From Candidatus Iainarchaeum sp. (GTDB taxonomy: Archaea; Iainarchaeota; Iainarchaeia; Iainarchaeales; JAZDEL01): a DNA stretch of 32,000 bases. Under the pieces are notes generated by a model that was not told the origin of the DNA, made no database searches, and saw only the letters and a list, made by a program, of their open reading frames with translations. Within the stretch, counting starts at the first letter, position 1; every line of letters begins with the position of its first letter. This document shows, one piece after another, positions 1-31,897 of this stretch. The stretch covers positions 1 through 32,000 of the forward strand of contig JAZDEL010000002.1 in NCBI GenBank assembly GCA_043808785.1, in the 5' to 3' direction. A program made the position numbers and the translations under genes.

Positions 1-132
1 AATCACTGCAGGCCCCACAGGAGCCTGCAGGGCAAGACGCCTGCAGAGGTCTACAACGAGTTCCACAGGCTGTTGTTTTTTAACAGGAAATGGGCCAAAA
101 CACTGAGGGATAAAAGCGGCAATATGTCATGA
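1..132 (+). mobile_element. 3' end of a DDE (rve/integrase-core type) transposase gene, truncated by the window edge
   Basis: Frame 1 reads NHCRPHRSLQGKTPAEVYNEFHRLLFFNRKWAKTLRDKSGNMS* (stop at 130-132). The RPH-SL-GKTP-E-Y block is the conserved C-terminal signature of IS3/IS481-like integrase-type transposases. Only 43 codons are visible and no terminal inverted repeat can be assigned. Confidence 0.5.
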
Positions 133-211
133 ACCCATACACGTTTTGCCTTTCGGGCACAAACAAGGCAGGCACGCCAAATTAAGAAATCGTACAGGGT
201 TGGTTTTATTG

Positions 212-610
212 CTACCCGCCTATGCCTGTGAAACCGTCTGAAGGGTCGGGTGTCTCAACAATATTGGCTTCTGAGACGCATTTGCATGTTCCGAGGTCGC
301 ATTTTGGGAAATCCGGGTTAGTGCACATACTATCTGCATCGCAATCGTGGTCAGGGTTTAATGCAGGGTCACAACTGCTAAACTCCGGGGGGTATGTTCC
401 TATTGGGGGGTTAGTCACGAGCTCGCCTCCAGTGCCCCCCGTCCCGGCAGCAGCCTCCATATTCGTAATCCCCGTCTGCACGATATCGTTAACCTCCCCG
501 CCCGTGCTTTTCCCAAGCCCGAGTATAAGCACAATAACAACAACGGCAACAAGCACCGCGCCGCCTATGAGAAGGAGGTACTCCAAAGCGCCCTGGCCTT
601 TCGAGTTCAT
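212..610 (-). CDS. Archaeal type IV pilin-like protein (class III signal peptide) with a Cys-rich C-terminal head
   Basis: The N-terminus MNSKGQGALEYLLLIGGAVLVAVVVIVLILGLG matches the archaeal prepilin motif (K-G/Q-x-x-x-E-Y-L-L-L-I followed by a hydrophobic helix). A Gly-rich linker follows, then six Cys in CDPALNPDHDCDADSMCTNPDFPKCDLGTCKC. The stop is TAG. An A/T-rich box (gcatatatctg, 627-637) lies just upstream. Confidence 0.85.
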   Translation of the reverse strand: MNSKGQGALEYLLLIGGAVLVAVVVIVLILGLGKSTGGEVNDIVQTGITNMEAAAGTGGTGGELVTNPPIGTYPPEFSSCDPALNPDHDCDADSMCTNPDFPKCDLGTCKCVSEANIVETPDPSDGFTGIGG

Positions 611-846
611 TTTTACCGTTCAGATATATGCAAACCACGTATTTAATTGTTTCGCCTTCGGGTTTCGCCTTTGCCGCGGGCATGCAAGCCCGCAAAAAAA
701 CAAAAACCGCAAAAGCGCGACCTCAAAAAAAAACAAAAACCCCGAACCGCGAACCCGCGGTTGTTTTTGGTTTGTTTTTTATTTTCCGTTTTTGCGCTTC
801 GGTTTTGCGTTTCCAGCATATCCTGCGCAAAAGCCCAATTGAAACC

Positions 847-862
847 TTTTTATTATATAAAG
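847..862 (+). promoter_or_regulatory. TATA-like box for the 890-7249 surface-protein operon
   Basis: The sequence tttttattatataaag is centred about 35 nt upstream of the ATG at 890. It is the only strong A/T box in the 280-nt divergent intergenic region on this side. Confidence 0.5.
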
Positions 863-889
863 ATGCAATTATATGGAAAAAGGCCGGTT

Positions 890-1963
890 ATGATGAAAGC
901 AAAACCCTTCCTGCTCGCAGCGCTGCTGCTGGTTCTCCTCTGCACATCCATATATGCGGTTGTGCCGAATTACCTGCGCGTGCAGGGCAAGATTTCGGAT
1001 GCAAGCGCATACTTCACAGGGGCGCAGGATGTAGAATTCCGCATTTATTCAAGCGAGTCCGGCCCCAACGCATCATACCTCGAACAGCACACAGGCCTTA
1101 ACCCTGTGCCCTTTTCCAACGGCTGGTTTGACGTGAACCTCGGTTTGTTAACCCCCCTTGACCTGAACTTCCGCTCCTCGCAGTACACGCCCTCCCAATA
1201 TTACCTCGGAATAACGGTTGGAACCGACGGCGAAATGGCGCCCCGCCTCCCGATACGCTCCTCGCCCTTCTGCTTCTCAACAAACGCCGCATATGATTTG
1301 AACTGCACGAACTGCATAGAGGATGCGGACATAGCAAACAACCTCACAATCGTAACCCCGAACGACTTTAATGTCCTCGGCACCCTGGATGTTTACGACC
1401 TTAATGTGCGCACCCTTGCTGTCGGTTCCGCAAACCAGCCCTCAATCGCGGGCGACATCAATATTTCCGGCAACCTTGAAATCGCGCCAGGAAAGAAACT
1501 CGTGATGCCAGGCACGCCCTTCGTTTACTGGATAAGTGCGGCGGAATACACTACACAGGACACAAACAAGCGCGGCGACGGCTTCACCCGCACCTCCTCC
1601 TACCGCACAACGCGCGGCACAATAAAAATAAGGCTCCCGAGCATAGCAAGCAGGTTTAATTCGGATGTTTACTTCGAGGAAATTTCACTTTACTTCTCCG
1701 GCCTCAACGGCGCGGACGCGAACATAGGAAACATTGCCCTTGTGCAGAACAACATGGGTTCGGATGTGAACGGCACAACAACCGCGCTGCGTTACGAGCC
1801 GGACATAGCAAGCGGCACCTCGGTAGACCTGAACAGCACAAACCTCACAGGCATGCCCTATAAGATGCTCGAGTACCCTTACTCCCTGAATGTTTTCATG
1901 AATGTTTCCCCGGGGCAGCAGATAGACCTGCGGTATGTAAAACTGGAGTACAGGATAGGGTGA
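890..1963 (+). CDS. Secreted surface protein, paralog 1 of 3 (unnamed family)
   Basis: The supplied ORF (647-1963) is trimmed to the in-frame ATG at 890 (MMKAKPFLLAALLLVLLCTSIYA, a signal peptide). This gives 357 aa, close to the 365 and 370 aa of its paralogs. It shares with them the blocks VQGK(I/L), F(R/K)IY, H(T/D)G, NG(W/F/Y)F, LG..(T/N)P(L/I).(D)LNF, Y(Y/W)LG(I/V), EM(A/S)PR, C(T/S)(N/S)C, LTI(V/I/A)TPN, AGD(I/L/V)N and a C-terminal LEY(R/H)(I/L)G. Confidence 0.8.
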   Translation: MMKAKPFLLAALLLVLLCTSIYAVVPNYLRVQGKISDASAYFTGAQDVEFRIYSSESGPNASYLEQHTGLNPVPFSNGWFDVNLGLLTPLDLNFRSSQYTPSQYYLGITVGTDGEMAPRLPIRSSPFCFSTNAAYDLNCTNCIEDADIANNLTIVTPNDFNVLGTLDVYDLNVRTLAVGSANQPSIAGDINISGNLEIAPGKKLVMPGTPFVYWISAAEYTTQDTNKRGDGFTRTSSYRTTRGTIKIRLPSIASRFNSDVYFEEISLYFSGLNGADANIGNIALVQNNMGSDVNGTTTALRYEPDIASGTSVDLNSTNLTGMPYKMLEYPYSLNVFMNVSPGQQIDLRYVKLEYRIG

Positions 1964-1967
1964 AAAA

Positions 1968-3065
1968 ATGGGGAAGCAAAGAAGCAGGAGAGTTGCATTC
2001 GCCGCGCTTGCGGCAGCCCTTATCCTGCTCCTCCTCGCAATCTCCGCAAGCGGTTACATAAATTACATAACCGTGCAGGGCAAGCTGAAAAACGGCAGCG
2101 GCTCAGCATATCTCTCGGGCGATTACGGCATGGTTTTCAAAATCTACGCAAGCGAGAACGCCGTAACCCCGCTTTACACCGAATCCCACACAGGCGCGAA
2201 TGCAGTAACCGTGAAGGACGGCTTCTTCAGCGCATCCCTCGGCACAATAACGCCTTTGGACCTTAACTTCCTGCAGAACTACTGGCTGGGCATAACTGTC
2301 GGGGCGGACAGCGAGATGAGCCCCAGGCAGCCTTTCATCCCGCAGCCTTATTCGATGTCCTCGCAGGTTGCGCTGGACGTAACCTGCTCCTCATGCGCAG
2401 GCGATGCCGAGATCGCCAATGCCCTGACGATTATAACGCCCAATGATGTGAACATCCTCGGCAGGGCGAATATTTACGACCTCAACATCGGGCGCACGAT
2501 TTCAGCCGGGGGCGCAAGGGGCACCTCCGCGGGCGACCTTAACATAGGCTCCTACCTGCACCTTGCGAAAACCTCGAAATGCATAATCGGCAGGAACTCC
2601 GCTTCATTGAGTTCCCCGATGCACTTATGGCTCTCCGCGCCCGAAACCCTGAGCAGGAACTCAATTCCCCCGGGGGCGAATGTTTTCGAAACTTCGGTAG
2701 AGGCAACCTCGGACGCAAACCTCTACTTCGCATTCCCCGTGCCTCACGGCGAACTTGGCTCCTCCGCGATTCTCGACAGCATAACAATCCAGTACTACGG
2801 CGCAACAGCAACGGACTACATCGACAGCGTTTACATAGAGCGCATAAACACGGGCACAAGCCTGAGCCTCACGCCCGTGATGAGCTACCACCCGAACATA
2901 ACAAGCGGCACAAGCAAAACCATAACCTCCGCAGACACCCCGAACCTGCCGCTCACCCTCGCCTCTGGCACGCCTTATCTCATAACCGTAGGCGTGGATG
3001 TTTCCCCGGCAACGCCGCAGCCTGTAACCATACACGGCTTCAAACTGGAGTACCACTTAGGGTGA
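1968..3065 (+). CDS. Secreted surface protein, paralog 2 of 3
   Basis: It starts 4 nt after the paralog 1 stop, and an aggGTGA SD overlaps that stop. The N-terminus MGKQRSRRVAFAALAAALILLLLAISASG is a signal peptide. The same conserved blocks as paralog 1 are present. Confidence 0.85.
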   Translation: MGKQRSRRVAFAALAAALILLLLAISASGYINYITVQGKLKNGSGSAYLSGDYGMVFKIYASENAVTPLYTESHTGANAVTVKDGFFSASLGTITPLDLNFLQNYWLGITVGADSEMSPRQPFIPQPYSMSSQVALDVTCSSCAGDAEIANALTIITPNDVNILGRANIYDLNIGRTISAGGARGTSAGDLNIGSYLHLAKTSKCIIGRNSASLSSPMHLWLSAPETLSRNSIPPGANVFETSVEATSDANLYFAFPVPHGELGSSAILDSITIQYYGATATDYIDSVYIERINTGTSLSLTPVMSYHPNITSGTSKTITSADTPNLPLTLASGTPYLITVGVDVSPATPQPVTIHGFKLEYHLG

Positions 3066-3072
3066 TGTGTAA

Positions 3073-4185
3073 ATGGCATGGATGAAAAATAAGGGCGCAA
3101 TTTCCTGCAGGGCAATACTGCAGCCGCTCCTTGTGCTTGCCCTGCTTACCTTGCTCTCAATCCCCATCGCCGCATACATAGGCGAGATGAACGCGCAGGG
3201 CAGGCTCTCCAATTCAACAGGCTTTGTTACAGGCGATTACAACATCGCGTTCACGATTTACAATGCCGAATCAGGGGGAAGCGCGCTCTGGACCGAAATA
3301 CACGACGGCGCAAACAAGGTGGGCGTGAACAACGGCTATTTCAGCACAACCCTCGGAACAATTAACCCTATAGAGGACCTTAACTTCCTGCAGGATTACT
3401 GGCTCGGGGTTAATGTCGAAAACACCGGTTACATGAGCCCGAGGCACAGGTTAACCCCTCTCCCCGGCTGCTTCACCTCGGAAACGGCGCAGGACGTGAA
3501 CTGCTCCTCGTGCATCTCCGACAGCGACGCCGACAACAGCCTCACAATTGCAACCCCGAACCAGGTTACCCTGCTCGGTTCCTCAAACTTCAGGGACACG
3601 AATGCCGTGCACTCACTGCGCACAGGCTCTGCAGCACAGCCCGCATCCGCAGGCGACGTTAACCTCTCAGGCAACCTTGTTATGCAGGCAGGCCAGGAAA
3701 TTGTGATGCCTGACCCCGAGGCAAGCGGGGCCTCAAGCATCTTTGTGGAGGCGGTCACAAACCTCCCGCAGTCCTCGGACGTTAACGGCAACGGAATTTC
3801 AAGGTCTTCGGTATGGCTCACCTCAGGCGGCATACTCCAGCTCGGCATGCCTGTGCATACCCTTGAGTACGGCGCAACACCCGTAATTGACAGGATAAAT
3901 GTTTACGATTACAACATGGGTGCAACTTTCTATGTCGACACAGTGCGCATAGAGAGCGTTAACCCCGACACCGGCACGCCCACAGTGCGCGCGATTTACA
4001 CAACAGACCAGACAAGCGGCACGGAGATAAACATGACCTCCGTAAATACAACAGGCTTCCCTTACAAGATGGTGAACGCGCCGCACCGCCTTGCCCTCGA
4101 TTTCAATGTTGCCGACATTAACCCGCACAGGTTTTACGTTTATGGGTATGAAATTCAGTACCATCTCGCGTACACAAGCAGGTGA
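3073..4185 (+). CDS. Secreted surface protein, paralog 3 of 3
   Basis: It starts 7 nt after the paralog 2 stop, preceded by a GGTGAT SD at 3060-3065. A hydrophobic N-terminal signal is present, along with the same conserved blocks (AQGRL, FTIY, HDG, NGYF, LNFLQDYWLGV, MSPR, CSSC, LTIATPN, AGDVNLSGNL, IQYHL). Confidence 0.85.
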   Translation: MAWMKNKGAISCRAILQPLLVLALLTLLSIPIAAYIGEMNAQGRLSNSTGFVTGDYNIAFTIYNAESGGSALWTEIHDGANKVGVNNGYFSTTLGTINPIEDLNFLQDYWLGVNVENTGYMSPRHRLTPLPGCFTSETAQDVNCSSCISDSDADNSLTIATPNQVTLLGSSNFRDTNAVHSLRTGSAAQPASAGDVNLSGNLVMQAGQEIVMPDPEASGASSIFVEAVTNLPQSSDVNGNGISRSSVWLTSGGILQLGMPVHTLEYGATPVIDRINVYDYNMGATFYVDTVRIESVNPDTGTPTVRAIYTTDQTSGTEINMTSVNTTGFPYKMVNAPHRLALDFNVADINPHRFYVYGYEIQYHLAYTSR

Positions 4186-4192
4186 GTTTTGA

Positions 4193-7100
4193 ATGGGCGG
4201 AATAAGCAAAGTGTGTTTTGTGTTTTTCCCCCTTGCCGTGGCACTTGCCTGCGCCGCACATGCCTCGGTCATGGGCAGCACCAACTACACGATGGAAGCG
4301 GATGTTTTCGCAGGCGGAACCGCAAGCAGCGCAACAGGCTACGACCTCAACGCGTTTTCCGTCGGCGAATTGGTTGCAGGCAACGCCTCCTCAGGCAGGT
4401 ATTTTGCCTATGTCGGGTTCCTGGCAACAGGCGCGGAAAAATGCAACGGCTGGGACGACGACCAGGACGGGAGCATTGACGAGGGCCCGTGGCCCGCGGA
4501 AACCTGCGGCAACGGCGTAGATGATGATTGCGACGGCAGCATTGATGAAGGGGCGTGCGGCACTGTTGCCATTGGCGGCACCGACGGCACGGCTGTGCGC
4601 CCCGCCTCTGGCTGCACATATTCCTGCGCAGGGCAGGAGGTATGCCCTGGCACGGTTTACGCCACAAGCGCGGGCGAGGTTTGCTGCAGCAGGCTGTGCA
4701 TTCCGGCAAGGGACCTGAACTATGCTGATGTGGCAATTACCTCCATGGGGCTCTCAAAGCACAACGCAAGTTCGGGCGACCTTGTGGAGTTCACCATAAA
4801 AATAAGGAACCGCGGCTCCGCAGCCTCAGGAAAGTTTGAAATCGCATTTTACATCCTGCGCGAACCAACGCAGGGAACCGCGGCTTTTTCCCCTGCAGCA
4901 GGCAAGCAAGCATACGCGCTTTTCGCGGATGAAAGCGAATTGGCAACATGGTCCGAGTTCGCCAGGTTCGAGGTTAACTCCCTTGCCCCGGGTGCGGAAA
5001 CAACAATTTCCGCGTCTTTCGACACCACAGGCTACAGCGGAGTCCTCGACTTGGGCGTGATGCTCGATTCTGAAAACTCAATAAGGGAAATAGACGAGGT
5101 CAACAACTGGGCGGACGCAAGCCTTGCAATAAGCGGCGGAATTACGCACCCTGAAATCTGCGGCAACAACATTGACGACGACCAGGACGGAATGGTTGAC
5201 GAGGATTGCACCGAAATCTGCGGCAACCTTATCGATGACGACCTTGACGGCAGGGTAGACGAGGGCTGCACAATCATATGCGACGGCAACATCTCTGGCG
5301 TTCCTCCGCAGCGCGAACTCGAGTGTGCGGCAGGCGGTGAAAAGCGGGCTCTTTTCAGCGACAAATACGTGAACGGCTTCTGCCTCGGCGGATGTGAAAA
5401 AACCCTCACGATTTATGCCGACGGTTCGGTCGGATATATCGAGAACATGTACGGCAATGTAAAGGAAATGCACGCAACCCTTACCTCGCAGGAACTGCAG
5501 CGCTTCAAGAACACAGTTGAAAACAGCGGCTTCCTCGCTCTCGACAAGGATTATTACACCTGCAGGGGCGCGCCAACAGACGCAGGCTCGCACACCTATG
5601 AATACACCAGCGGCGGCACCATAAAGAAAGCGGGCTTCTACTCGGCATGCACCTCGGAAATAGACCTCTCATTCCCGCGCGCATTCGGCATCATAGGCGC
5701 GGAACTCGGCACAATAAGCGGCATGCTTGAGGGCGGCGCCGCGCCCTCTGGAACCTCCCTTGCGGATATTTACGCCTGCACCGCAGATGCGGACTGCACC
5801 AACATACAGGACGGCTGCTGCGACTGCAACTACGGCGGCAGGAACACATCCATAAACAGGCGCTATGTGCAGTGCTGGCTCGAACACCTCGAGCAGGAAT
5901 TCACCTGCAGCGAAGCATTTTGCATAACCATGCCTTCGCTTGACCCGAGCTGTTTTGCGCTTCCAAAATGCGTTAACGGCCTCTGCACGAACGCTTCAGG
6001 TGATGCATGCTCCCGCATCACGCCCGAAACCTGCGGCAACAACATAGATGACGACCTTGACGGAATGGTTGACGAGGATTGCACCGAGGTTTGCACGGAC
6101 GGCATAGACAACGACCTCGACGGCAGGATTGACGAGGGCTGCGGCGAAATCTGCGACGACCATATCGACAACGACCTCGACGGCCTTACGGATGAGGATT
6201 GCTACACAATGCCGGAAATCTGCGGGGACGGGATAGACAACGATTTTGACGGCAGGATAGATGAAGGGTGCGGCGAGATATGCGGCAACAACATAGATGA
6301 CGACCTCGACGGCCTCATTGATGAGGAGTGCTATGAACTGCAGGAAATCTGCGGCAACAACTTGGATGACGACCACGACGGACTTGTGGACGAGCCGCCC
6401 TGCACTGACGGCGTGCCGGACAGCGATGATGACGGCCTTACCGATGAAGTGGAGCGCGGCATAGGCTCCGACCCGTATAATCCCGACACAGACTCAGACA
6501 GCCTGCGCGACGGAAAGGAAATAAACGAAACAGACACTAGCCCCATACTTTTTGACACAGACGAGGATAATGTCGGGGACGGCCAGGAATTCCTGTACGA
6601 CATAACCGACCCGGTAGACCCTATGAGCAACCTGCTCGAGCTTGTGATGAAGCCCGATGTCCCGGTAGGCGGGCAGCAGGAAGTTGGGGTAAAGCACCCC
6701 GCACTTGGCCTTATCCAAGGCATTTCCGCGCAGGTTATTTCCCCGTCCGGCGCGAAGCAGGGCTTCACTGCAGCGGATTCCAAAATAACCTTCACTGTCA
6801 AGGAGGAGGGAGTTTACACAGTGCTTGTAAGCAAGAAGGCATATTCCGCATCTGGCACATTTAATGGCGTGGGCACAGGCCTTGCAATAGGCGGCTATGC
6901 AGGCGACCTTGCCTCGCTTATATTCGGCTCCTCCCTGTTTGAAAACCCGTTGCTTGTCCTGCTCCTCTGCGTACTTTCAATTGCAGCATGCATCCTAGCA
7001 TACAGGAACAGTGCGGTGCTTTTCCGCGGGCGCGGCATGCCGCTTGCGGAAACCGCGGAGAGGAGGGAGAAGCTCAAGCGCGCGGGGGTAGCGGTGTTGT

Positions 7101-7249
7101 TCTTCATCGTGCCGCTGCTCATAAACAGGTTCCTTGACACCGGCTTGGCAATCCTTTTCGCTGTGCTCGAGATAGCGGTGATTTACGCCGCAACCTATAT
7201 GCTGCGCGCAAAAACCCGCGCAATGGAAGAGAAGCCGATAAGGGTTTAA
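4193..7249 (+). CDS. Giant membrane-anchored surface protein with MopE-like Cys/Asp repeats, a CARDB-like domain and thrombospondin type 3-like Asp repeats
   Basis: An aggtga SD lies 7 nt upstream and the N-terminus is a signal peptide (VCFVFFPLAVALACAAHA). About 10 copies of C(G/T/D)(N/D)x(I/V/L)D(D/N)D(x)DGxxDE(x)C occur in three clusters (about 4440-4555, 5155-5270 and 6020-6405). This resembles the 'putative metal-binding motif' repeat of MopE-type proteins. A CARDB-like segment is present (DVAITSM...FTIKIRNRGSAASG...NSLAPGAETTI...EVNNWA). An Asp-rich DSDDDGLTDE...DPYNPDTDSDS...FDTDEDNVGDG run resembles TSP3 calcium-binding repeats. Three C-terminal hydrophobic helices follow. Confidence 0.85.
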   Translation: MGGISKVCFVFFPLAVALACAAHASVMGSTNYTMEADVFAGGTASSATGYDLNAFSVGELVAGNASSGRYFAYVGFLATGAEKCNGWDDDQDGSIDEGPWPAETCGNGVDDDCDGSIDEGACGTVAIGGTDGTAVRPASGCTYSCAGQEVCPGTVYATSAGEVCCSRLCIPARDLNYADVAITSMGLSKHNASSGDLVEFTIKIRNRGSAASGKFEIAFYILREPTQGTAAFSPAAGKQAYALFADESELATWSEFARFEVNSLAPGAETTISASFDTTGYSGVLDLGVMLDSENSIREIDEVNNWADASLAISGGITHPEICGNNIDDDQDGMVDEDCTEICGNLIDDDLDGRVDEGCTIICDGNISGVPPQRELECAAGGEKRALFSDKYVNGFCLGGCEKTLTIYADGSVGYIENMYGNVKEMHATLTSQELQRFKNTVENSGFLALDKDYYTCRGAPTDAGSHTYEYTSGGTIKKAGFYSACTSEIDLSFPRAFGIIGAELGTISGMLEGGAAPSGTSLADIYACTADADCTNIQDGCCDCNYGGRNTSINRRYVQCWLEHLEQEFTCSEAFCITMPSLDPSCFALPKCVNGLCTNASGDACSRITPETCGNNIDDDLDGMVDEDCTEVCTDGIDNDLDGRIDEGCGEICDDHIDNDLDGLTDEDCYTMPEICGDGIDNDFDGRIDEGCGEICGNNIDDDLDGLIDEECYELQEICGNNLDDDHDGLVDEPPCTDGVPDSDDDGLTDEVERGIGSDPYNPDTDSDSLRDGKEINETDTSPILFDTDEDNVGDGQEFLYDITDPVDPMSNLLELVMKPDVPVGGQQEVGVKHPALGLIQGISAQVISPSGAKQGFTAADSKITFTVKEEGVYTVLVSKKAYSASGTFNGVGTGLAIGGYAGDLASLIFGSSLFENPLLVLLLCVLSIAACILAYRNSAVLFRGRGMPLAETAERREKLKRAGVAVLFFIVPLLINRFLDTGLAILFAVLEIAVIYAATYMLRAKTRAMEEKPIRV

Positions 7250-7255
7250 TATTCT

Positions 7256-7549
7256 CTAGGCGGGATATTTCCTTTTGCAGCCGCACTCTTTGCAGGAGAA
7301 CTCTTCAAGCGTGCCCGCCTTTTTCGTTTTCATTTTCGCCTCCCCTGCCCAATATGCCCCGCACTTCCTGCAGAACCTTTTCTTCAGTTCCCTTGGAATG
7401 GGCACGCGGTTCCTCTTTCCTAATTCACGCGCAAGGTGCACATACCTTTTGCTCCTTTCGGGATGCTTTTCGAATTCCTTTTCCGCAAGTTCGAAAAGCC
7501 TGCGCATCCTTTCCAGGGTTATTTCCCGTACAAGCCCCTTTCCCATCAA
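7256..7549 (-). CDS. rnp4: RNase P protein component 4 (Rpr2/Rpp21 family zinc ribbon)
   Basis: The N-terminal helical region ITLERMRRLFELAEKEF..RSKRYVHLARELGKRNRVPIPRELKKRFCRKCGAYW is followed by a second Cys pair (CKECG). This is the layout of archaeal Rpr2. The stop is TAG. Confidence 0.75.
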   Translation of the reverse strand: MMGKGLVREITLERMRRLFELAEKEFEKHPERSKRYVHLARELGKRNRVPIPRELKKRFCRKCGAYWAGEAKMKTKKAGTLEEFSCKECGCKRKYPA

Positions 7550-7558
7550 ACCACCATT

Positions 7559-8485
7559 TCAAGGTGCGGCCGGGTTGATTATGGGGAACGCGTAATAAAC
7601 CTCCACTATCGCGCCCGCAACCACGAGCATTGCCGCAAACACCAGGATTACAAGCGCGTCAACAACAAGCATGCCGAAATTTTCCGAATTGAAATTCTCC
7701 CATATTGCCCTGAATGTTATGGCGCCCGAAATTGCGGAGCAGAGGTAAGCAGCAGCCTCTATTATCAGGTGCGGCATTATCGCAACAAGGGTTATCAGCG
7801 CAAAGAGCAGGACGTTCCCGTCCCCCGAAAGTGCGTTCGCCCTGAGGTAGCTGCCGAGTATCACGCCCCATACTGACGCGTTCCACACGACAATGAAAAT
7901 TCCAGACCTGTAAACCAGTGAAATTATGAAGCATATCGCGAAAACCCCGATGTTGTTCAGGAATATGTCCGCAAGCGAAATCGCGCCCGCCGATGCCGCG
8001 CCAGTTGCCGAGCCTGCGGCTTCCACAGCGGACCCGACATTAAAAATCCCCTTCTGCTGCAGGAACAGGTTCTGTGCCATGTCCGCGGGCAGCATCAGCT
8101 GCAGAACCGTGTAAACCACAAAAACCCCGAGGAAGCTGAAAACATACGCCCTGAACAAATCCCCGTGGTTTTCAATCACCTTGAGCGGATTAAACCAGCC
8201 GCTTATCTGCGATGCCCTGAGTTCCGTGATTTTTATTCCCTTCTCCGCCTTTACTTCCGTTTCAGTCCCCACAGTCATTGCCCTTGTTGAAATCAACTTA
8301 TCCCACGAGGGGAAAACCGCAAGCGAGGTGAAGAAAACGCTTATCATCCCTATGCCGCCCGCGAGCGAACCCCCCGCAAAAAGCACCCATGCAGTTGTGA
8401 TTCCGAGCAGCGCACACCCCACTCCCGTGAGGAAAGCAAGCAGCGGCGCATGCCTTACGGCGTCCCTTATCGACTTGAGGTTCAT
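7559..8485 (-). CDS. Polytopic membrane protein, DUF95/SpoIIM-like
   Basis: Multiple predicted TM helices are present. The segment MPHLIIEAAAYLCSAISG resembles the PHGxxExxA motif of the DUF95 (stage II sporulation protein M-like) family. It starts 1 nt after the upstream stop. Confidence 0.55.
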   Translation of the reverse strand: MNLKSIRDAVRHAPLLAFLTGVGCALLGITTAWVLFAGGSLAGGIGMISVFFTSLAVFPSWDKLISTRAMTVGTETEVKAEKGIKITELRASQISGWFNPLKVIENHGDLFRAYVFSFLGVFVVYTVLQLMLPADMAQNLFLQQKGIFNVGSAVEAAGSATGAASAGAISLADIFLNNIGVFAICFIISLVYRSGIFIVVWNASVWGVILGSYLRANALSGDGNVLLFALITLVAIMPHLIIEAAAYLCSAISGAITFRAIWENFNSENFGMLVVDALVILVFAAMLVVAGAIVEVYYAFPIINPAAP

Positions 8486-8486
8486 G

Positions 8487-8957
8487 CTACAATAACGCCT
8501 TGCGGGTTTTTAATGGTTTTCTTGGCTGCATCCGACGTGGAACTTCCAGTTTGAGCTTACCCTGCCTGAAGCCACGGGTAGTGTGAATGCAACCTGTCTG
8601 CACAATTTTCAAATTCCCCCAATTAAGGTTTGCCATCTTGAAGAATTCCTTAGGGAAACTCCTTGCGCAGGCATCTTGGTATACGCCGTATGCCTCACCC
8701 TTTGCATTCGGCGAAATTTTGAGTCCCCCCTTGCTAATCTGTGAAATAACTTCTTCAGCCACACCGCTCCACACCCCGTGTTTTGCGCTGACCGCTACCC
8801 TGTTTTTCAGCATGCGCCGCAAAAACAATTCCAAATCATTCTCGGCTTTTTCCATTTCGCTTTTCCTATTCTGGTCGACCTTCCATGCAGGTTCGTTTGG
8901 GTTATTCGGCGGTGCCTGTTTGCCCGCGATTCCCCGCCTAACTGCCGCCTCAAACAA
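8487..8957 (-). CDS. Hypothetical protein; may be the C-terminal part of a gene interrupted by an in-frame TAG
   Basis: The ORF starts only at a TTG, two codons after the TAG that ends ORF 8961-9164, and it is in the same frame. No family was recognised. Confidence 0.45.
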   Translation of the reverse strand: MFEAAVRRGIAGKQAPPNNPNEPAWKVDQNRKSEMEKAENDLELFLRRMLKNRVAVSAKHGVWSGVAEEVISQISKGGLKISPNAKGEAYGVYQDACARSFPKEFFKMANLNWGNLKIVQTGCIHTTRGFRQGKLKLEVPRRMQPRKPLKTRKALL

Positions 8958-8960
8958 TTC

Positions 8961-9164
8961 CTACCTTGTTGGTATTCCGCTTTTCACAAGCACGACAAGC
9001 GAGTTCGGCTCGTTCTGCGCCACATTTTTTATAAGCGGATTGAGCACTGTTTCTATTAATGCATTCGTCTGTCTCGCTGCCTGTTGTGGCGTTCTTGTCG
9101 TTGCGATGAACGTATGCGCAGGATGCGTTATGAAATAAATCTTGTCTATTATTTTTTCAGCCAC
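8961..9164 (-). CDS. Hypothetical protein; may be the N-terminal part of a gene interrupted by an in-frame TAG
   Basis: The product is 67 aa (MAEKIIDKIYFITHPAHTFIATT...SLVVLVKSGIPTR) and ends at TAG 8961-8963. It looks like part of an alpha/beta domain rather than a complete protein. Confidence 0.45.
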   Translation of the reverse strand: MAEKIIDKIYFITHPAHTFIATTRTPQQAARQTNALIETVLNPLIKNVAQNEPNSLVVLVKSGIPTR

Positions 9165-9181
9165 ATTTCCGCCTCAGTTGT

Positions 9182-9294
9182 CCGCCCGCCCCAAGGCGGG
9201 CACTTGCAGTTTTCGCCAGCCTTCGCAGGCAGCGTGATTTTTGCGAAGCAAAAATCCTTCTTTTTGCTAACTTTTTCTTGCAAAGAAAAAGTTA
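9182..9294. repeat. Mosaic palindromic repeat locus R1 (modules A+B+C)
   Basis: Module A is gcccgccccaaggcgggcacttgcagttttcgcca, also found at 27283-27318. Module B is gcgtgatttttgcgaagcaaaaatccttctttttgc at 9232-9267. Module C is the hairpin aactttttcttgcaaagaaaaagtt at 9269-9293, ending 1 nt from the tRNA 3' end. Confidence 0.85.
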
Positions 9295-9431
9295 TGCGCC
9301 CGCCGGGACTCGAACCCGGACGAAGAGCTTGCCCCAACAACCGCAACCTGCCTTGTGTTTCTTTTGTCAACTTTTCTTTCTTAAAGAAAAGTTGTTGGAG
9401 GGCTCTCATGCTGCCATTACACCACGGACGC
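9295..9431 (-). tRNA. tRNA-Gly (anticodon TCC) with a roughly 66-nt intron at 37/38 (intron 9330-9395)
   Basis: A manual cloverleaf was built. The acceptor is GCGTCCG/CGGGCGC plus A73, the D arm GTGT-AATGGCA-GCAT, the anticodon stem AGAGC/GCTCT, the variable loop 4 nt (TCGT), and the T arm CCGGG-TTCGAGT-CCCGG. The spliced loop is CCTCCAA. G1-C72, C2-G71, G3-C70, A73 and a 4-nt variable loop fit Gly. A 3-nt CAA bulge next to the anticodon stem and a 4-bp CCUC/GGGG helix fit a relaxed bulge-helix-bulge motif. The TATA box aatatattaata lies at 9461-9472. Caveat: position 33 would be C. Confidence 0.65.
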
Positions 9432-9525
9432 ATTTTCGCCTGCGCGCCACTTGGCGCGTGAATATATTAATAGCCGCCTCGGTTAATAATTTAATTGTTC
9501 TCCCTGCATTGAGGAAGGGTTTGAT

Positions 9526-10245
9526 ATGGCCAAAAATGCGAAAAACGCTAAAAATGCAGGTTCGGGCAAAGGCGCGGTTTCCGCAAAAAAACAAAGGCCA
9601 AAAACCCGCGCGCCGCGGGTTAAGGGGTTTTTCCTTGTTATTGACGGCATTGACGGCTCGGGGAAGGGCACAATCCTTTCGCTCCTGCATGATTGGTTCC
9701 TTGCGCAGGGGGTTCCGCCGGGTAGGCTCCTGCTTACCGCCGAACCGACTTCAGGCGCCTATGGCAGGCGCATAAGGGAACTCCTCCGTTCCGGCGCCGA
9801 CCCTCACGCCCGGGCGCGCGAACTGCTGAACCTTTACATAAAGGACAGGAAGGAGCACATTTCCCGCGCAATTCTGCCAGCGCTTTCCGCTGGAAAAATA
9901 ATCCTGTGCGACCGCTACAAATACAGCACAATTGCATACCAGTCCGCGCAGGGTTTGGATAAGGGCAAACTGATTTCCCTGCACAAAAAAATGCCGGTGC
10001 CGAACCTTGCCTTGATTTTGGATTTGCCTGTTGAGGAAGCGCTTTCCCGCATCTCCTCCGACAGCAGCCGCAGCGGCAAGGACGTTTTCGAGCGCTCCGC
10101 GTTCCTTGAGAAAGTGCGCGCCAATTTCCTCGCGCTTAAGGAGGAACTGCCGAAGGAGAAAATCGCGGTTATTGACGCCTCGGGAACCAAAGAGGAAGTT
10201 TTTGGGCGCGTGCTCGCGGCAGTGAAGAAAAGTGCCGCAATTTAA
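9526..10245 (+). CDS. tmk: Thymidylate kinase with a basic N-terminal extension of about 31 aa
   Basis: The P-loop region is FFLVIDGIDGSGKGT. The DRY-type motif CDRYKYSTIAYQ and a typical C-terminal half are present. No start codon lies nearer the P-loop, and V32 (GTT) sits where Tmk proteins normally begin. Confidence 0.85.
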   Translation: MAKNAKNAKNAGSGKGAVSAKKQRPKTRAPRVKGFFLVIDGIDGSGKGTILSLLHDWFLAQGVPPGRLLLTAEPTSGAYGRRIRELLRSGADPHARARELLNLYIKDRKEHISRAILPALSAGKIILCDRYKYSTIAYQSAQGLDKGKLISLHKKMPVPNLALILDLPVEEALSRISSDSSRSGKDVFERSAFLEKVRANFLALKEELPKEKIAVIDASGTKEEVFGRVLAAVKKSAAI

Positions 10246-10258
10246 TTGCCCGCATTAA

Positions 10259-10348
10259 GCGTGATTTTCGCCGAAGGCGAAAATCCTTCTTTTTGCTTGC
10301 TTTTGTTGACTTTTCGGAAGCGGGCTATGCCCGCGCTCCTAAAAGTCA
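10259..10348. repeat. Mosaic palindromic repeat locus R2 (module B plus a C-like hairpin)
   Basis: Module B is gcgtgattttcgccgaaggcgaaaatccttctttttgc at 10259-10296. It is followed by gacttttcggaagcgggctatgcccgcgctcctaaaagtc, a hairpin that abuts the tRNA 3' end. Confidence 0.8.
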
Positions 10349-10526
10349 TGCGACTGCCGGGAATCGAACCCGGGTCTGAACCTTGTTGCAAGAACCTCCT
10401 GTGAGGCTTCGGAACCGCAGGTTCCGCCGCCCTGCAGAACCCGCAAGGGTTCTGCCGCAAGGGAGGTATCGGAACCGTAGGTTCTGATGTGGCAAGGTCC
10501 AAGCCTAACCGCTAGCCTACAGTCGC
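10349..10526 (-). tRNA. tRNA-Gly (anticodon GCC) with a 106-nt intron at 37/38 (intron 10384-10489)
   Basis: The acceptor is GCGACTG/CAGTCGC plus A73, the D arm GGCT-AGCGGTTA-GGCT, the anticodon stem GGACC/GGTTC, the variable loop AGAC, and the T arm CCGGG-TTCGATT-CCCGG. The spliced loop is TTGCCAA. A 3' CAA bulge and a perfect 4-bp central helix UUGC/GCAA are present, and the 5' bulge is enlarged (relaxed BHB). The A/T box ttttaaaa at 10558-10565 lies about 32-39 nt upstream. Confidence 0.75.
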
Positions 10527-10539
10527 ATGCCCTCTAAAC

Positions 10540-11952
10540 CTATTTCCTAAGCAAATCTTTTAAAACGAATATAGATGTGGCTGCAATTATAAGCACAAGC
10601 CCTGCAATTGCAAGCGCCTTTACCGCCTGTATTGCCGCATCCCCTGCGCTCATTTTGGGTGCAGGCGCCACCCTTGCGGAAAGCCCGCCCTCGGGGTAAA
10701 CCTCGATGTAATCGCTTATATTGCCGTCCGGCAGCAGCAATATGAATTCATACCTCCCATACGCGCCCATGGTTTCGAATTTCGGCGCAACAACAATGAA
10801 TTCCGCAGTTCCCCACTCCCCCGGCTTCAGCCACACAAGCCTCTTCGATATGCCCTTTATTTTGAAATCCCTGTGCATTTCCAGCTCCACAGGAACTATC
10901 ACATTCATTTTCTGCAGGCCTTTCATTTCTATCGCCAGCCCGACATCCTGCATCGATTCCCCCTTATCCTTCCTCACACTTGCCTGCACAATTCCCATGA
11001 AAACCCTTACTTCGTTTATGGACACCTTCGGCGCCAGGAGCGTGATTTTCGCCTTCACCGAATTTATTGTGTTAGTTGCCACTGTTATGTTTGATAAATC
11101 GTTCACGTCCGCGGACTTCGCAAGCGGGAAATGCAGCGCATCCACATACCCTGCCTCGCCGTATGTAGGGTCCACGCCCACCCAGCCTGTGCCGGGCAGG
11201 TAAGCCTCGATCCAGCCGTGGTTGTTGAATTCCTCCCCGTTGTAACTTACGCCCGAAACATACCTTACGGGAATGCCCTTCGCCCTCATCAGTGCGGCAG
11301 CCATGTTTGCGAACTCGCCGCACACCCCGCGCCTTATCTCGAACGTTTCCCTCGCCCCGTTTTTCACGCCGTAATAGCCGCGGTCGTACGTTATGTTCGA
11401 GTTCACCCACTCGGTTATCCCCCTTATCGCCTCTATTTCCGACGTGCCGCGGAATTCCGAATTCGTGAAATCAACAATCTCATTTGCGTCGCTCTCTATG
11501 AACTCGGTGGGTTCCAGGAATTCCGCCATTTCCTCGCCCCACCCGCCCTTTCCGAGGATGAAATCTTCCCCCAGCCCCATACTCGCGGTGCGCTTTACCC
11601 TTGCCCTTACCTTTATTTCGAACCGCGGGGTTTTTTCATATTTATACATATCCGGAATTTCAAACACCGCATACATCACTCCGTTCAAATCCTCGTTCCT
11701 TGCGTTGTAAGTTTCCCCGCCCATAACCAGGGTTTCCCCGAGGTACTCGACTTCCTGCCCCTCCTGCGCTGCAGGGATTATGAACCTGACTTCCAGCGTG
11801 TCCTGCGCGCTCAATACGCCCGTTATTTCCCCGCTTGCGCCTGTTTCGATAATCACATCGGCATAGTTCACGGTTTCGGGCATTATTTCCTGCGCCGAGC
11901 ATGCCTGCGCCGCAAGCAACACAAGCGCGAGCAAAGCCACTTCTTTTTTCAT
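10540..11952 (-). CDS. Transglutaminase-like cysteine protease-fold protein, secreted and C-terminally anchored
   Basis: The N-terminal signal is MKKEVALLALVLLAAQACSA. The transglutaminase core is RGVCGEFANMAAALMRAKGIPVRYVSG...HGWIEAYL...WVGVDPT, giving a Cys-His-Asp triad. A C-terminal TM helix (ALAIAGLVLIIAATSIFVL) is present. Confidence 0.85.
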   Translation of the reverse strand: MKKEVALLALVLLAAQACSAQEIMPETVNYADVIIETGASGEITGVLSAQDTLEVRFIIPAAQEGQEVEYLGETLVMGGETYNARNEDLNGVMYAVFEIPDMYKYEKTPRFEIKVRARVKRTASMGLGEDFILGKGGWGEEMAEFLEPTEFIESDANEIVDFTNSEFRGTSEIEAIRGITEWVNSNITYDRGYYGVKNGARETFEIRRGVCGEFANMAAALMRAKGIPVRYVSGVSYNGEEFNNHGWIEAYLPGTGWVGVDPTYGEAGYVDALHFPLAKSADVNDLSNITVATNTINSVKAKITLLAPKVSINEVRVFMGIVQASVRKDKGESMQDVGLAIEMKGLQKMNVIVPVELEMHRDFKIKGISKRLVWLKPGEWGTAEFIVVAPKFETMGAYGRYEFILLLPDGNISDYIEVYPEGGLSARVAPAPKMSAGDAAIQAVKALAIAGLVLIIAATSIFVLKDLLRK

Positions 11953-11985
11953 GCAGAATAAGTTATCCGTTCAATAATAAAAATG

Positions 11986-12150
11986 CGGCGGTTCAGCCTT
12001 TTCGGAGCGTGGGGCTTCGCTATTTTGCCTTGCCCTATTTTGCCTCTTGGCAAAATGGGCGCAATTGGCTGTAGCCAATTAGCGCGGCAAAATGCGCGCA
12101 TTCGGCTCAAGCCGAATAGCGTCAGCCCCACTTCCAAAAGCCTGGGGAAA
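11986..12150. repeat. Mosaic palindromic repeat locus R5 (modules F, E, G)
   Basis: Module F is gcggttcagccttttc at 11988-12003, identical to 27186-27201. Module E at 12037-12085 is attttgcctcttggcaaaatgggcgcaattggctgtagccaattagcgc, matching 26228-26277. The segment ccacttccaaaag at 12128-12140 is the reverse complement of 27320-27332. Confidence 0.8.
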
Positions 12151-12184
12151 AACGTTAGCCAGCGCATCCCGAACCAGCGAAAAC

Positions 12185-12583
12185 TCAGAAATCCTCCGCG
12201 ACAAACCCGGCAAGCGCCTTCCTTGCGTCGTCCATCCTGTTTACCTTTGCGGCAAAAATCCCCCTGCCCCCTTTCTTTGTCAGGAGGTAGATGTGCTCTA
12301 TGTTTATCTTCGACTTCTCGAGGATTCTCGCAATCTTCGCAAGCGAGCCCGCCCTGTCGTCCGCTGAAAAGAGCAGGATTTCGGACTCAGTTAACTTGTA
12401 GCCCGTATTTGCAAGCGCCTTCTTCGCCCCCGCAACATCCCGTGTTACCATGCGTATGATTGCGCCGTCCGCAAACGTTTCCGCGCTTATGCTCTCCATG
12501 TTTATCCCGTTATTGCCGAGGCGTTCCGCGATTTCCGCAAGCACCCCCGGCCTGTTGTCCGTCAGTATTGTCAGTTGCTTCAT
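12185..12583 (-). CDS. Tandem ACT-domain protein
   Basis: Two ACT-like units are visible: LTILTDNRPGVLAEIAERLGNNGINMESISA and LLFSADDRAGSLAKIARILEKSKINIEHIY. An AGGAGGG SD lies at 12589-12595 on the minus strand. Confidence 0.75.
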   Translation of the reverse strand: MKQLTILTDNRPGVLAEIAERLGNNGINMESISAETFADGAIIRMVTRDVAGAKKALANTGYKLTESEILLFSADDRAGSLAKIARILEKSKINIEHIYLLTKKGGRGIFAAKVNRMDDARKALAGFVAEDF

Positions 12584-12613
12584 GCCATCCCTCCTGATTT
12601 TTTTTGTGTTGAA

Positions 12614-12676
12614 GCGTGATTTTCGCGAAGCGAAAATCCTTCTTTTTGCAAACTTTTTCTTTCCAAGAAAAAGTTT
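12614..12676. repeat. Mosaic palindromic repeat locus R3 (modules B+C)
   Basis: Module B is gcgtgattttcgcgaagcgaaaatccttctttttgc at 12614-12649. Module C is aactttttctttccaagaaaaagtt at 12651-12675, ending 1 nt from the tRNA-Val 3' end. Confidence 0.85.
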
Positions 12677-12749
12677 TGGGCCGGGGCGGAATCGGACCGC
12701 CGATTTCTGCCTTGTAAAGGCAGCGTCATAGCCGCTAGACCACCGGCCC
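12677..12749 (-). tRNA. tRNA-Val (anticodon TAC), intronless
   Basis: The minus strand reads GGGCCGG-TG-GTCTAGCGGCTATGAC-G-CTGCC-TTTACAA-GGCAG-AAATC-GGCGG-TCCGATT-CCGCC-CCGGCCC-A. This is a perfect 7-bp acceptor with anticodon loop TT-TAC-AA. No CCA is encoded. The TATA box tttaaa at 12777-12782 lies 28-33 nt upstream. Confidence 0.9.
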
Positions 12750-12900
12750 GCACACTAGGTTATGGGTGCGCATTCCTTTAAAGTTTTCTGGCTAACAGGA
12801 AAATGCGCCGGTAGTGGAATGGTGCAACAACGCCCCCCATAACAAAACCTTTAAATAGGGTTCAAACATTATAGATTACGATTTCAAAAGGTGCGTTTGA

Positions 12901-13329
12901 TTGAAAAAGGTGGTTTCTTTCTTCGGCAGGGGAAAAAATGTCCATCTCCCCAAGCTTATAGGCGCGTTCATACTTTTTGCGGCATTGCTGATGTTCATAA
13001 AGGTAAGCGCTGAAATGTTCGAATCCTGGGACAATGCAAAGGCGGTTAATGCCTGCCTTGCCGCGGCGGACGACGAAACAAAGTTCCTTTTCTGCTACAA
13101 TTACGCGAACGAATCATTAGGCGTCACCGTAAGGCCCGAACAGGATAAGCTCACCGGAAGGCAGTTCTGGCAGGTCCTCCTCGGGCCGGTGGTAAGCATG
13201 CTTATCTGGCTCGCGGTGCTCTTTGTGGGGTGGATGCTCTACAGGGCAAGCCATCTTGTCTTTTTCGTCGAGGAGCCCTCGGCAATGAGGGAGCGCTTTT
13301 CGGAGCATGCGTTCAAGAGGAAGAGGTAG
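12901..13329 (+). CDS. Small membrane protein, unknown function
   Basis: It starts at TTG, preceded by an aaaggtg SD-like motif, with the TATA-like box tttaaata at 12852-12859. Two hydrophobic helices are present (IGAFILFAALLMFI and VVSMLIWLAVLFVGWML). Confidence 0.55.
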   Translation: MKKVVSFFGRGKNVHLPKLIGAFILFAALLMFIKVSAEMFESWDNAKAVNACLAAADDETKFLFCYNYANESLGVTVRPEQDKLTGRQFWQVLLGPVVSMLIWLAVLFVGWMLYRASHLVFFVEEPSAMRERFSEHAFKRKR

Positions 13330-27185: not shown

Positions 27186-27372
27186 GCGGTTCAGCCTTTT
27201 CTTATAAAGAAACCCGTTTTGGGCTAAAGCCCAAAAGGGCCCTTTTGGCGCAAGCCAAAACGGGAGGCTGGCGAAAAGAACAGCCCGCCTCTAGGCGGGC
27301 ACTCGCAGTTTTCGCCAACCTTTTGGAAGTGGGTTTGAGCCCAAGCGAAAACCCACGCTCCGAAAAGGTTGC
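27186..27372. repeat. Mosaic palindromic repeat locus R6 (modules F, D, A, G)
   Basis: Module F lies at 27186-27201, the 18-nt palindrome at 27231-27248, and module A (gcccgcctctaggcgggcactcgcagttttcgcca) at 27283-27318. The segment cttttggaagtgg lies at 27320-27332. The hairpin gtgggtttgagcccaagcgaaaacccac follows. Confidence 0.85.
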
Positions 27373-27437
27373 ACCGGAAACGCACCCTCCCAACCTTTTT
27401 AAACCAGGTTCGGGCAATTGTTATTCGGTGCGCGCAA

Positions 27438-28529: not shown

Positions 28530-28555
28530 TTGGGGTTTGTTGGTTTATTTGTATT

Positions 28556-31890: not shown

Positions 31891-31897
31891 GGTATAA

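Follow-up and report, generated by a model that had tools for sequence, protein, structure and literature searches.

A pilin-adjacent operon of fibre-like paralogs and a giant repeat protein in a Candidatus Iainarchaeum contig: a candidate fibre adhesin assembly of an archaeon

Recognisable host- or substrate-contact proteins are few in DPANN archaea. The locus described here raises the question of whether three tandem paralogous secreted proteins and a giant repeat protein, encoded beside a divergent pilin gene, could form such a contact structure and, if so, how it would be held on the cell. The window (the whole stretch of DNA that was analysed, 32,000 nucleotides [nt] in length) comprises positions 1 to 32,000 of contig JAZDEL010000002.1 from Candidatus Iainarchaeum sp. 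(assembly GCA_043808785.1). A preliminary description made from the sequence alone took its source to be a DPANN archaeon, in agreement with the NCBI label "MAG: Candidatus Diapherotrites archaeon" (MAG, metagenome-assembled genome; locus tags V1676_012xx). When GTDB species representatives were scanned for relatives of the locus, only a Candidatus Iainarchaeum MAG contig matched. The same description, which presumed an episymbiotic lifestyle and contact with a host, read positions 212-7249 as a candidate surface-attachment locus that was not assignable to any described system. The first part of this reading stands in outline and can be sharpened: the locus is predicted to encode chimeric fibre adhesins similar to the mosaic adhesive trimer (MAT) fibres of Bdellovibrio, together with a fused anchor. 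The second part is not supported, and the locus can in part be placed among described systems, for three reasons. First, the N-terminal domain (N-domain) of the paralogs belongs to the Bdellovibrio MAT N-domain superfamily. Second, the first module of the giant protein resembles the N-terminal third of the profile for PamT, a protein of the candidate phyla radiation (CPR). Third, the operon is one instance of a widespread gene pair consisting of a fibre gene and a partner with a short repeat module, here called SNY. With somewhat more confidence than doubt, we propose that the four-gene operon encodes a self-contained surface adhesin assembly, in which the fibres would be docked via the SNY module on a membrane-anchored, calcium-binding stalk. 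The genes concerned are as follows (aa, amino acids):

212-610, minus strand: pilin, 132 aa
890-1963, plus strand: fibre paralog 1, 357 aa (translated from the ATG at 890 and not from 647, where a longer reading frame opens)
1968-3065, plus strand: fibre paralog 2, 365 aa
3073-4185, plus strand: fibre paralog 3, 370 aa
4193-7249, plus strand: giant protein (predicted stalk and anchor), 1018 aa

All five open reading frames (ORFs) were found where the preliminary description had placed them, with the pilin gene divergent from a tightly coupled operon of four genes. The gaps within the operon are 4, 7 and 7 nt, and the motifs GGGTGA, GGGTGA and AGGTGA each overlap the preceding TGA stop. Its view of the products as secreted or surface proteins was likewise borne out, and no enzyme signatures were found in them.

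Within the window, the three paralogs are 34-38% identical over their full length, and 42 columns are invariant in an alignment of nine paralog sequences. Their parts can be delimited as follows:

Paralog 1, aa 1-23: signal peptide
Paralog 1, aa ~24-136 (959-1297, plus strand): MAT_N-like N-domain
Paralog 1, aa 139-142: CxxC motif
Paralog 1, aa ~143-194: shaft
Paralog 1, aa 195-357 (1472-1960, plus strand): jelly-roll head
Paralog 2, ~2052-2381, plus strand: N-domain
Paralog 2, 2550-3062, plus strand: head
Paralog 3, ~3172-3498, plus strand: N-domain
Paralog 3, 3667-4182, plus strand: head

The first ~110 residues after the signal peptide are common to many bacterial proteins (E-values down to 1e-21), and these bacterial homologs continue into collagen triple-helix repeats or Peptidase_S74 domains, both of which are marks of trimeric fibres. 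The NCBIfam model Bdello_MAT_N (NF053851) matches the N-termini of the three paralogs with 22.9, 19.1 and 15.2 bits (E-values: 5.8e-5 to 0.014) and is matched by 19/21 aligned relatives (best E-value: 3.3e-10), while a local N-domain hidden Markov model (HMM) recognises paralog 1 with an E-value of 1.8e-38. Judging from these profile matches, we take the paralog N-domain to be homologous to the MAT N-domain at the superfamily level and do not accept family membership. Full-length relatives of the paralogs were confined to this archaeal clade in a large-database protein search, no Pfam or PHROGs match was obtained for any of the three, and a PDB sequence search with the paralog profile found nothing. 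A word-indexed protein search returned paralogs 1 and 3 but not paralog 2 or its orthologs, which looks like a gap in database coverage and not like biology.

The CxxC motif that follows the N-domain is invariant in all nine aligned sequences. In the full-length AlphaFold2 model of paralog 1 (mean predicted local distance difference test score [pLDDT] 59), the N-domain is modelled at 77-93 and residues 124-240 fall below 50; a Foldseek search with this model returned nothing below an E-value of 1e-3. The unmodelled shaft is probably a segment that folds only in an oligomer, most plausibly a trimer. A role of the paralogs as surface-layer (S-layer) subunits was considered and rejected, as the proteins are small and have a fibre-type N-domain and a tandem repertoire of lectin-like heads.

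The head of the fibre, modelled alone, folds independently as a jelly-roll sandwich (pLDDT 82.7, predicted template modelling score [pTM] 0.79). Its top Foldseek matches in the PDB are CBM86, CBM36, CBM6, CBM11, domain III of Cry toxins and viral capsid jelly rolls (E-values of ~3e-4 to 3e-3, template modelling [TM] scores up to 0.54-0.64), while the best matches in BFVD are the distal parts of Klebsiella phage tail fibres and tailspikes (E-value: 3.7e-6) and giant-virus collagen-repeat proteins. The C-terminal halves of the paralogs were also used for an exhaustive profile search of 1.84 billion representatives, which gave three strong matches, all in this clade, and some ten further matches that are weak but agree with one another (E-values: 1e-9 to 2e-4). 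In the latter, proteins that are otherwise unrelated can be aligned over the whole of their last ~150-175 residues, which terminate in "...IYGFKVEYHLE"; two of these proteins carry weak CBM_4_9 matches upstream, and one of the two also has tail-fibre PHROG matches. A word-indexed homolog search with the head alignment yielded only 2 proteins. The models support a lectin-like distal domain, similar to carbohydrate-binding modules and tail spikes, to which we assign no specific family. Between the paralogs, the heads are the most divergent part of the protein (22-30% identity, compared with 38-48% for the N-domain).

The giant protein begins with a signal-like segment and is composed of the following parts:

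4265-4432, plus strand: SNY module, aa 25-80, directly after the signal peptide
4442-6394, plus strand: predicted stalk, with acidic double-disulfide (MopE-like) repeats, CARDB, DUF6438-like and Cys-rich segments
6404-6592, plus strand: TSP3-like acidic calcium-binding repeats, aa 738-800 (PF18884, E-value 0.0028, below cutoff)
6908-7210, plus strand: predicted C-terminal membrane anchor, hydrophobic aa 906-944 and 963-1006 with a basic loop between them (Kyte-Doolittle scan)

The SNY module consists of ~55 aa with three SS-x-x-Y-x-L repeats (STNYTM...SATGYDL...SSGRYFAYVGF) and is recognised by a local SNY HMM with an E-value of 2e-25. All three giant orthologs match positions ~10-81 (9-80 in the window giant) of the 241 positions of the NCBIfam model CPR_pilus_PamT (NF058579; E-values: 2.7e-6 to 2.3e-4), and a PDB sequence search with the SNY profile found nothing. 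Orthology of the giant to PamT was rejected, as only the first third of the profile matches. Behind the module, the acidic double-disulfide repeats occupy aa 84-119, 323-357 and 614-734, with 10 copies of the regular expression C-x-G-x-DDD-x-DG-x-x-DE, and exceed curated cutoffs for NF033662 (51.4 bits, cutoff 41) and for the MopE-type family PF11617 (38 bits, cutoff 27). The CARDB domain (PF07705, aa 182-307) scores 50.8 bits against a gathering score of 22.7; the DUF6438-like segment (aa 394-484) remains below its cutoff (PF20033, 27.2 bits, cutoff 30), and a Cys-rich segment lies at aa ~528-600. Of the MopE/TSP3/CARDB mosaic seen in the preliminary description, the MopE-type and CARDB components exceed their cutoffs, and TSP3 stays below threshold. 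The single PDB sequence match of the giant, which bears on the TSP3-like repeats, is a weak one to a biofilm-associated surface protein (7c7r, E-value: 0.0097). From the hydrophobic segments, we infer a topology with the C-terminus in the membrane. Full-length homologs of the giant were found only in the same clade (P0023, 49% identity).

The key finding concerns the company that these genes keep in other genomes. We defined a fibre-SNY pair as a gene with the SS-x-x-Y triple repeat that adjoins, on the same strand, at least one MAT_N-type gene; the window contains such a pair, in that the giant with its SNY module begins 7 nt after paralog 3. A first set of 14 metagenome loci sharing only the N-domain was taken from a scan with paralog 2. 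Local HMMs identified a same-strand SNY-module ORF adjoining the fibre gene in 9/14 of them, downstream in eight loci (L011, L013, L014, L015 [twice], L016, L018, L020 and L021) and upstream in L009, where the module forms the C-terminus of a 677-aa protein. Downstream sequence is missing or shorter than 1 kb in the other five loci, and no other ORF among 1655 matched the SNY HMM at E<0.01. Since L009 and L015 were part of the seed of the SNY HMMs, there is some circularity in these two; searches with the models then identified the other seven. For an independent set, four N-domain homologs encoded on long contigs (L022-L025) were taken from the first protein search. The pairing was present in 4/4 of these, bringing the total to 13 unrelated loci.

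The partners differ greatly in what they attach to the module. In L022 (Caldilineaceae MAG JAGPDZ010000065.1, positions 1-12957), seven tandem fibre genes encode ~300-aa proteins with a shared N-domain and heads of ~130 aa that are all different, one being an H-type lectin; after them comes a giant protein that is at least 1974 aa long and carries two SNY modules. This locus is a bacterial parallel to the archaeal operon. In L023 (Ignavibacteriales), two tandem fibre genes precede a 173-aa protein made up of nothing but a signal peptide, one SNY module and a sorting domain of the type IX secretion system (T9SS; Por_Secre_tail), and the arrangement in L024 is similar. In L025, the fibre gene directly follows a gene for a CHAP-domain protein that bears two SNY modules. 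Other modules are fused to a dockerin-like module (L018 and L020), to a hydrophobic tail (L015) or to an M23/OmpL47-like protein (L009). The 97-aa SNY protein of L015 matches PamT positions 3-77 with an E-value of 2.1e-8. What is conserved across the pair loci is the proximal N-domain of the fibre and the SNY module of the partner, while the remainder varies. Two near-identical archaeal contigs with the same pilin-like gene, L016 (10013-11941) and L021 (10013-12937), illustrate this point: identity is ~93% in the SNY partner and over the first ~240 aa of the fibre, and the distal part of the fibre has been replaced (642 aa in L016, 974 aa in L021), a difference that, on the aligned sequences, indicates tip swapping. 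To this we add the side observation that the L021 fibre matches Pfam Shufflon_N (E-value: 1.1e-11). The fibre-SNY gene pairing itself may be new.

The most economical explanation for a conserved N-domain, a conserved SNY module and anchoring devices on the partners is docking: the SNY module is probably the site by which the fibres are held on the cell surface, through a predicted binding to their N-domains. In the window, the paralogs would be secreted short fibres with an N-terminal attachment domain, a CxxC staple and a short trimeric shaft, and their jelly-roll head of the lectin/tail-spike type would be the likely ligand-binding end. The giant would form a rod-like stalk, stabilised by Ca2+ and disulfides, with its C-terminus in the membrane and the SNY module at its distal N-terminus, where the module is presumed to dock the fibre N-domains. 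Because this module directly follows the signal peptide and the other end of the giant is predicted to lie in the membrane, the fibres would be placed at the far end of the stalk, and their lectin-like heads would be displayed ~900 residues from the membrane. Such an arrangement would work like a pilus tip adhesin, but on a single polypeptide. Trimerisation of the fibres, the contact of their N-domains with the SNY module, the recognition of glycans or of a host and any part played by the pilin are all inferred.

An alternative is that the SNY protein is an assembly or secretion factor, comparable to the chaperones of phage tail fibres, that in this archaeon is merely fused to an unrelated surface protein. 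Phage tfa genes are likewise small and lie directly downstream of tail-fibre genes, and the SNY partner is usually a small gene directly downstream of the fibre gene, overlapping it or separated from it by a few nt. The occurrence of the module on M23 and CHAP enzyme-bearing proteins without obvious anchors (L009 and L025) would also fit. We nevertheless hold this explanation, in which the SNY module would aid fibre trimerisation or export and perhaps be bound only transiently, to be improbable. Several SNY partners possess devices for display or anchoring (the T9SS C-terminal domain, transmembrane helices, the dockerin-like module), and the module resembles the start of a predicted pilus-tip subunit. 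A membrane-anchored, calcium-binding stalk of 1018 aa would be an odd carrier for a chaperone, and the fibres conserve their proximal N-domain, whereas phage chaperones act on the distal part.

Several observations weigh against the docking of fibres on a stalk, or against parts of this proposal. The paralogs score only 15-23 bits with Bdello_MAT_N, far below the 60-bit cutoff, so that family membership does not apply, and at 357-370 aa they have about one third of the length of a MAT fibre. With the shaft at pLDDT <50, trimerisation is a supposition. The window giant reaches 21.1 bits with the PamT model (its orthologs 20.6 and 27) against a cutoff of 240, and the match partly covers the signal peptide. 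In five of the pair loci, the E-values of the SNY HMM are modest (3e-5 to 2.5e-3) and convincing mainly by position. The SNY module is internal or C-terminal in enzyme-bearing proteins (L009, L022 and L025), for which a role in assembly, with cargo or of another kind is possible. The structural matches of the head have TM scores of only ~0.4-0.57, which amounts to generic jelly-roll similarity. Lastly, between Diapherotrites genomes the heads diverge no more than the rest of the protein, unlike typical fast-evolving receptor-binding tips.

Four related contigs, from three other NCBI assemblies and one Logan contig (L001-L004), carry the locus and were used to examine its conservation. All keep the order and orientation of the five genes, so that the co-conservation on which the preliminary description was to be judged is present: there are a divergent pilin gene, three paralogs and a protein of ~1035 aa, and contigs that extend far enough also have Rpr2 and a SpoIIM-like membrane protein after these. 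Positional orthologs of the paralogs are 58% and 82-84% identical, compared with 30-39% between paralogs, which amounts to a strict 1:1:1 correspondence; the orthologs of paralog 2, for example, are far closer to it (58% and 82% identical) than are the other paralogs (34-37% identical). As identity is higher within orthologs than between paralogs, the sequences place the triplication before the split of these genomes, with all three copies retained in order since. A comparison with L004 shows all five genes to be under purifying selection: the paralogs have dN/dS ratios of 0.12-0.14, the giant has one of 0.19 and the pilin one of 0.37. Amino acid identity to L004 is 82-84% for the paralogs and 54% for the pilin.

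Strict retention of three copies invites the idea that the paralogs form an obligatory 1:1:1 heterotrimer on the three pseudo-repeats of one SNY module, and not three homotrimers. The positional orthology and the age of the triplication would be expected of such a complex, the gaps of 4-7 nt with Shine-Dalgarno-over-stop junctions favour equimolar synthesis, the SNY module has three internal repeats, and L009 also has exactly three tandem fibre genes beside one SNY module. The stoichiometry is not general, however: seven fibre genes accompany two SNY modules in L022 and two accompany two in L015, most loci have one of each, and MAT fibres are described as homotrimers. We regard an obligatory heterotrimer as unlikely.

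Whether the pilin belongs to the same structure is a separate matter. Its class III signal peptide (MNSKGQGALEYLLLIGG...) is followed by a Gly/Thr linker and a small head with 6 Cys, and the protein passes the cutoff for PF04021 (Class_IIIsignal; 29.9 bits, cutoff 23.7, E-value 5e-7), as do its orthologs in L001 and L004 (27.5 and 30.5 bits). Among these orthologs the N-terminal helix is nearly identical and the Cys-rich head diverges fast. In L001 and L004, a leftward operon opens with the pilin gene and continues with a 74-77-aa membrane protein with a Gly-rich tail and then secreted Cys-rich proteins:

L001 6950-9308 and L004 255-4698, left of the pilin orthologs: leftward pilin-operon genes

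The pair of membrane protein and Cys-rich protein is duplicated in L004, and the secreted Cys-rich proteins of the two contigs (617-699 aa) gave no Pfam or NCBIfam matches. On one account, the class III pilin forms a type IV-like filament, the fibres and/or the giant are its tip or accessory complex, and all five genes make up one machine, as in the preliminary description. The pilin gene is adjacent and divergent in all four related contigs. In the distant archaeal lineage of L016 and L021, the fibre gene comes 1 nt after the end of a pilin-like gene (MKAAFTILQAML...), and just upstream lie two T2SSF genes, a KaiC-like ATPase and a PIN/T2SSE/KH ATPase. The resemblance of the SNY module to the start of PamT, and the tail-fibre-like gene that co-localises with CPR pam operons, point in the same direction. 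We still think a single machine improbable. The scanned ORFs of the 32-kb window include no prepilin peptidase, PilB/ArlI ATPase or PilC/ArlJ platform protein, although these may lie elsewhere in the genome, and no pilin was seen in the bacterial loci with a fibre-SNY pair. The giant has a membrane anchor of its own. The L021 pilin-like protein has no Pfam match and no similarity to the window pilin, and homology between the two was rejected. Finally, the housekeeping neighbours Rpr2 and the SpoIIM-like gene are as syntenic as the pilin in this clade and the pilin heads its own operon in the relatives, so that adjacency alone does not tie it to the four genes. Membership of the pilin in the fibre/stalk system is plausible but unproven.

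The same conservation bears on the idea that the locus is a tail-fibre cassette of viral origin, either domesticated or in decay, or else some other mobile element, and has no surface role in the cell. In its favour, the head resembles the distal domains of phage tail spikes and tail fibres, and the end of a transposase-like ORF flanks the locus:

1-132, plus strand: 3' end of a transposase/integrase-like ORF, last 43 codons, convergent with the pilin (frame-1 end ...HCRPHRSLQGKTPAEVYNEF...*)

This ORF extends past the left edge of the window, and the "remnant" of the preliminary description is therefore indistinguishable from an intact gene cut by the window. Its motif RPHRSLQGKTPAEVY is presumably the C-terminal end of an rve-type DDE integrase, for which the databases gave no confirmation: neither tblastn against plasmids nor phmmer against the PDB returned a match. 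In L001 and L004, its position is taken by the 74-77-aa membrane protein and the Cys-rich secreted protein(s) of the leftward operon. A viral or mobile origin is barely credible in view of the remaining evidence. None of the five proteins has a PHROG match, two pattern scans of IMG/VR gave no relatives, and tblastn with the N-domain against 50,697 phage genomes yielded no match. Housekeeping genes flank the locus on the chromosome, in a synteny that is conserved even in genomes whose proteins are only ~58% identical; dN/dS in the operon is low (0.12-0.19), and the GC content of the locus is close to that of its surroundings.

Expression of the operon can be outlined from the intergenic region:

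611-889, between the divergent genes: divergent promoter region, with TATA-like boxes for the operon at 847-862 and for the pilin at ~620-640

A Shine-Dalgarno motif (GGTGA) is present for operon genes 2-4 and absent from gene 1, whose start lies ~35 nt downstream of a TTTTTATTATATAAAG box. These features suggest that the first gene has a short leader or none and that the genes behind it are translationally coupled. The inverted repeats computed for the promoter region are designated I1-I13; an imperfect A-run/T-run palindrome at ~690-800 has A5-9C/G runs on the left, T-runs on the right and 35-nt arms that are 74% complementary. The TATA region and the palindrome are conserved in L004, where the palindrome is ~100 nt larger; the palindrome is also partly present in L001. 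The palindrome could be a DNA-bending or regulatory element for both promoters.

Should the docking of fibres on the stalk be correct, the Diapherotrites would gain a concrete and testable adhesin assembly, with heads, stalk, anchor and a docking interface of ~55 + 100 residues. A broader proposal is that, in Bacteria and Archaea alike, MAT_N-type fibre adhesins are generally docked on the cell surface by the SNY module, a role of the module not recognised before; we advance this tentatively, as a possibility to which we lean less than to its converse. According to the MAT paper (PMC10769870) and a 2025 review, the surface element bound by the MAT N-domain has yet to be identified. If the broader proposal were true, the SNY module would be this "surface element" sought for the Bdellovibrio fibres, and the fibre-SNY pair offers that field a candidate answer to what holds MAT fibres on the cell. 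The pair likewise suggests what the PamT N-terminus and the CPR tail-fibre-like gene may do: the N-terminal segment of PamT would hold the fibre at the pilus tip, which would explain the presence of that gene in pam operons. Different lineages would then mount the same fibres on different carriers, namely a T9SS-anchored stub, dockerin-like proteins, a pilus tip or a giant stalk.

The remainder of the window contains the following features:

7559-8485, minus strand: multi-pass membrane protein adjoining Rpr2, 308 aa, no Pfam match (L001 ortholog matches SpoIIM, E-value 5.9e-9)
10540-11952, minus strand: transglutaminase-like protein, 470 aa
12677-12749, minus strand: tRNA-Val(TAC)
13452-15335, minus strand: Toprim-domain protein, 627 aa
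20756-25707, minus strand: three large lysine-rich proteins (302, 520 and 513 aa), no Pfam match
27369-30437, plus strand: NurA (386 aa) and HerA-type helicase (536 aa; DUF87 and HAS barrel) pair, an archaeal DNA end-resection module
30994-31938, minus strand: Fic/DOC family protein

The 308-aa membrane protein is conserved beside the locus on the opposite strand, and the two largest lysine-rich proteins are distant paralogs of each other (24% identity, E-value: 5e-8).

Among described systems, the fibres are closest to those of B. bacteriovorus, in which MAT proteins are chimeric fibres of ~1000 aa (Caulton et al. 2024, PMC10769870), described as homotrimers. Like these, the window fibres have a signal peptide, a homologous N-domain that lacks a PDB homologue, a fibre-type middle part and a variable, beta-rich C-terminal tip. 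Several paralogs occur per genome in both cases, and in both they are predicted surface adhesins of a small organism that possibly lives on other cells. Unlike MAT proteins, the window fibres are archaeal, are 357-370 aa instead of ~1000 aa in length and score far below the family cutoff. Their genes are not dispersed but tandem and translationally coupled, their heads belong to a different, rare family, and a candidate anchor is co-encoded, whereas that of the MAT fibres is unknown. The locus is a new archaeal variant among MAT-like chimeric fibre adhesins.

In the recently described Pam pilus of CPR, PamT is the subunit predicted for the tip; according to the preprint (bioRxiv 10.64898/2026.03.03.709456), pam operons are accompanied by a tail-fibre-like gene. 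The giant shares with PamT an N-terminal signal peptide and the ~55-aa segment with the SS-x-x-Y triple repeat (profile positions ~3-81), and its SNY module would likewise sit at the distal end of a long surface appendage. It differs in matching the first third of the profile only, with no evidence of the truncated Ig-like domain. No other Pam model (PamA/B/C/D/E/R) matched the locus proteins in NCBIfam scans, and in contrast to the donor-strand-exchange polymer of Pam, the "appendage" of the window would be one membrane-anchored polypeptide of 1018 aa.

With phage tail fibres, tailspikes and collagen-like fibres, the paralogs have in common the succession of a proximal attachment domain, a shaft and a distal jelly-roll head. 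The distal swapping between close strains (L016 and L021) and the small partner gene directly downstream are also reminiscent of phage fibres. In contrast to the latter, the genes described here are chromosomal and syntenic, and the fibres would attach to a cellular stalk instead of a baseplate. The giant in turn resembles the large calcium-binding repeat adhesins in being a mosaic of extracellular calcium-binding and Ig-like modules; unlike in other such adhesins, these modules lie between an N-terminal SNY module and a predicted C-terminal multi-helix anchor, an architecture that was found in this clade only.

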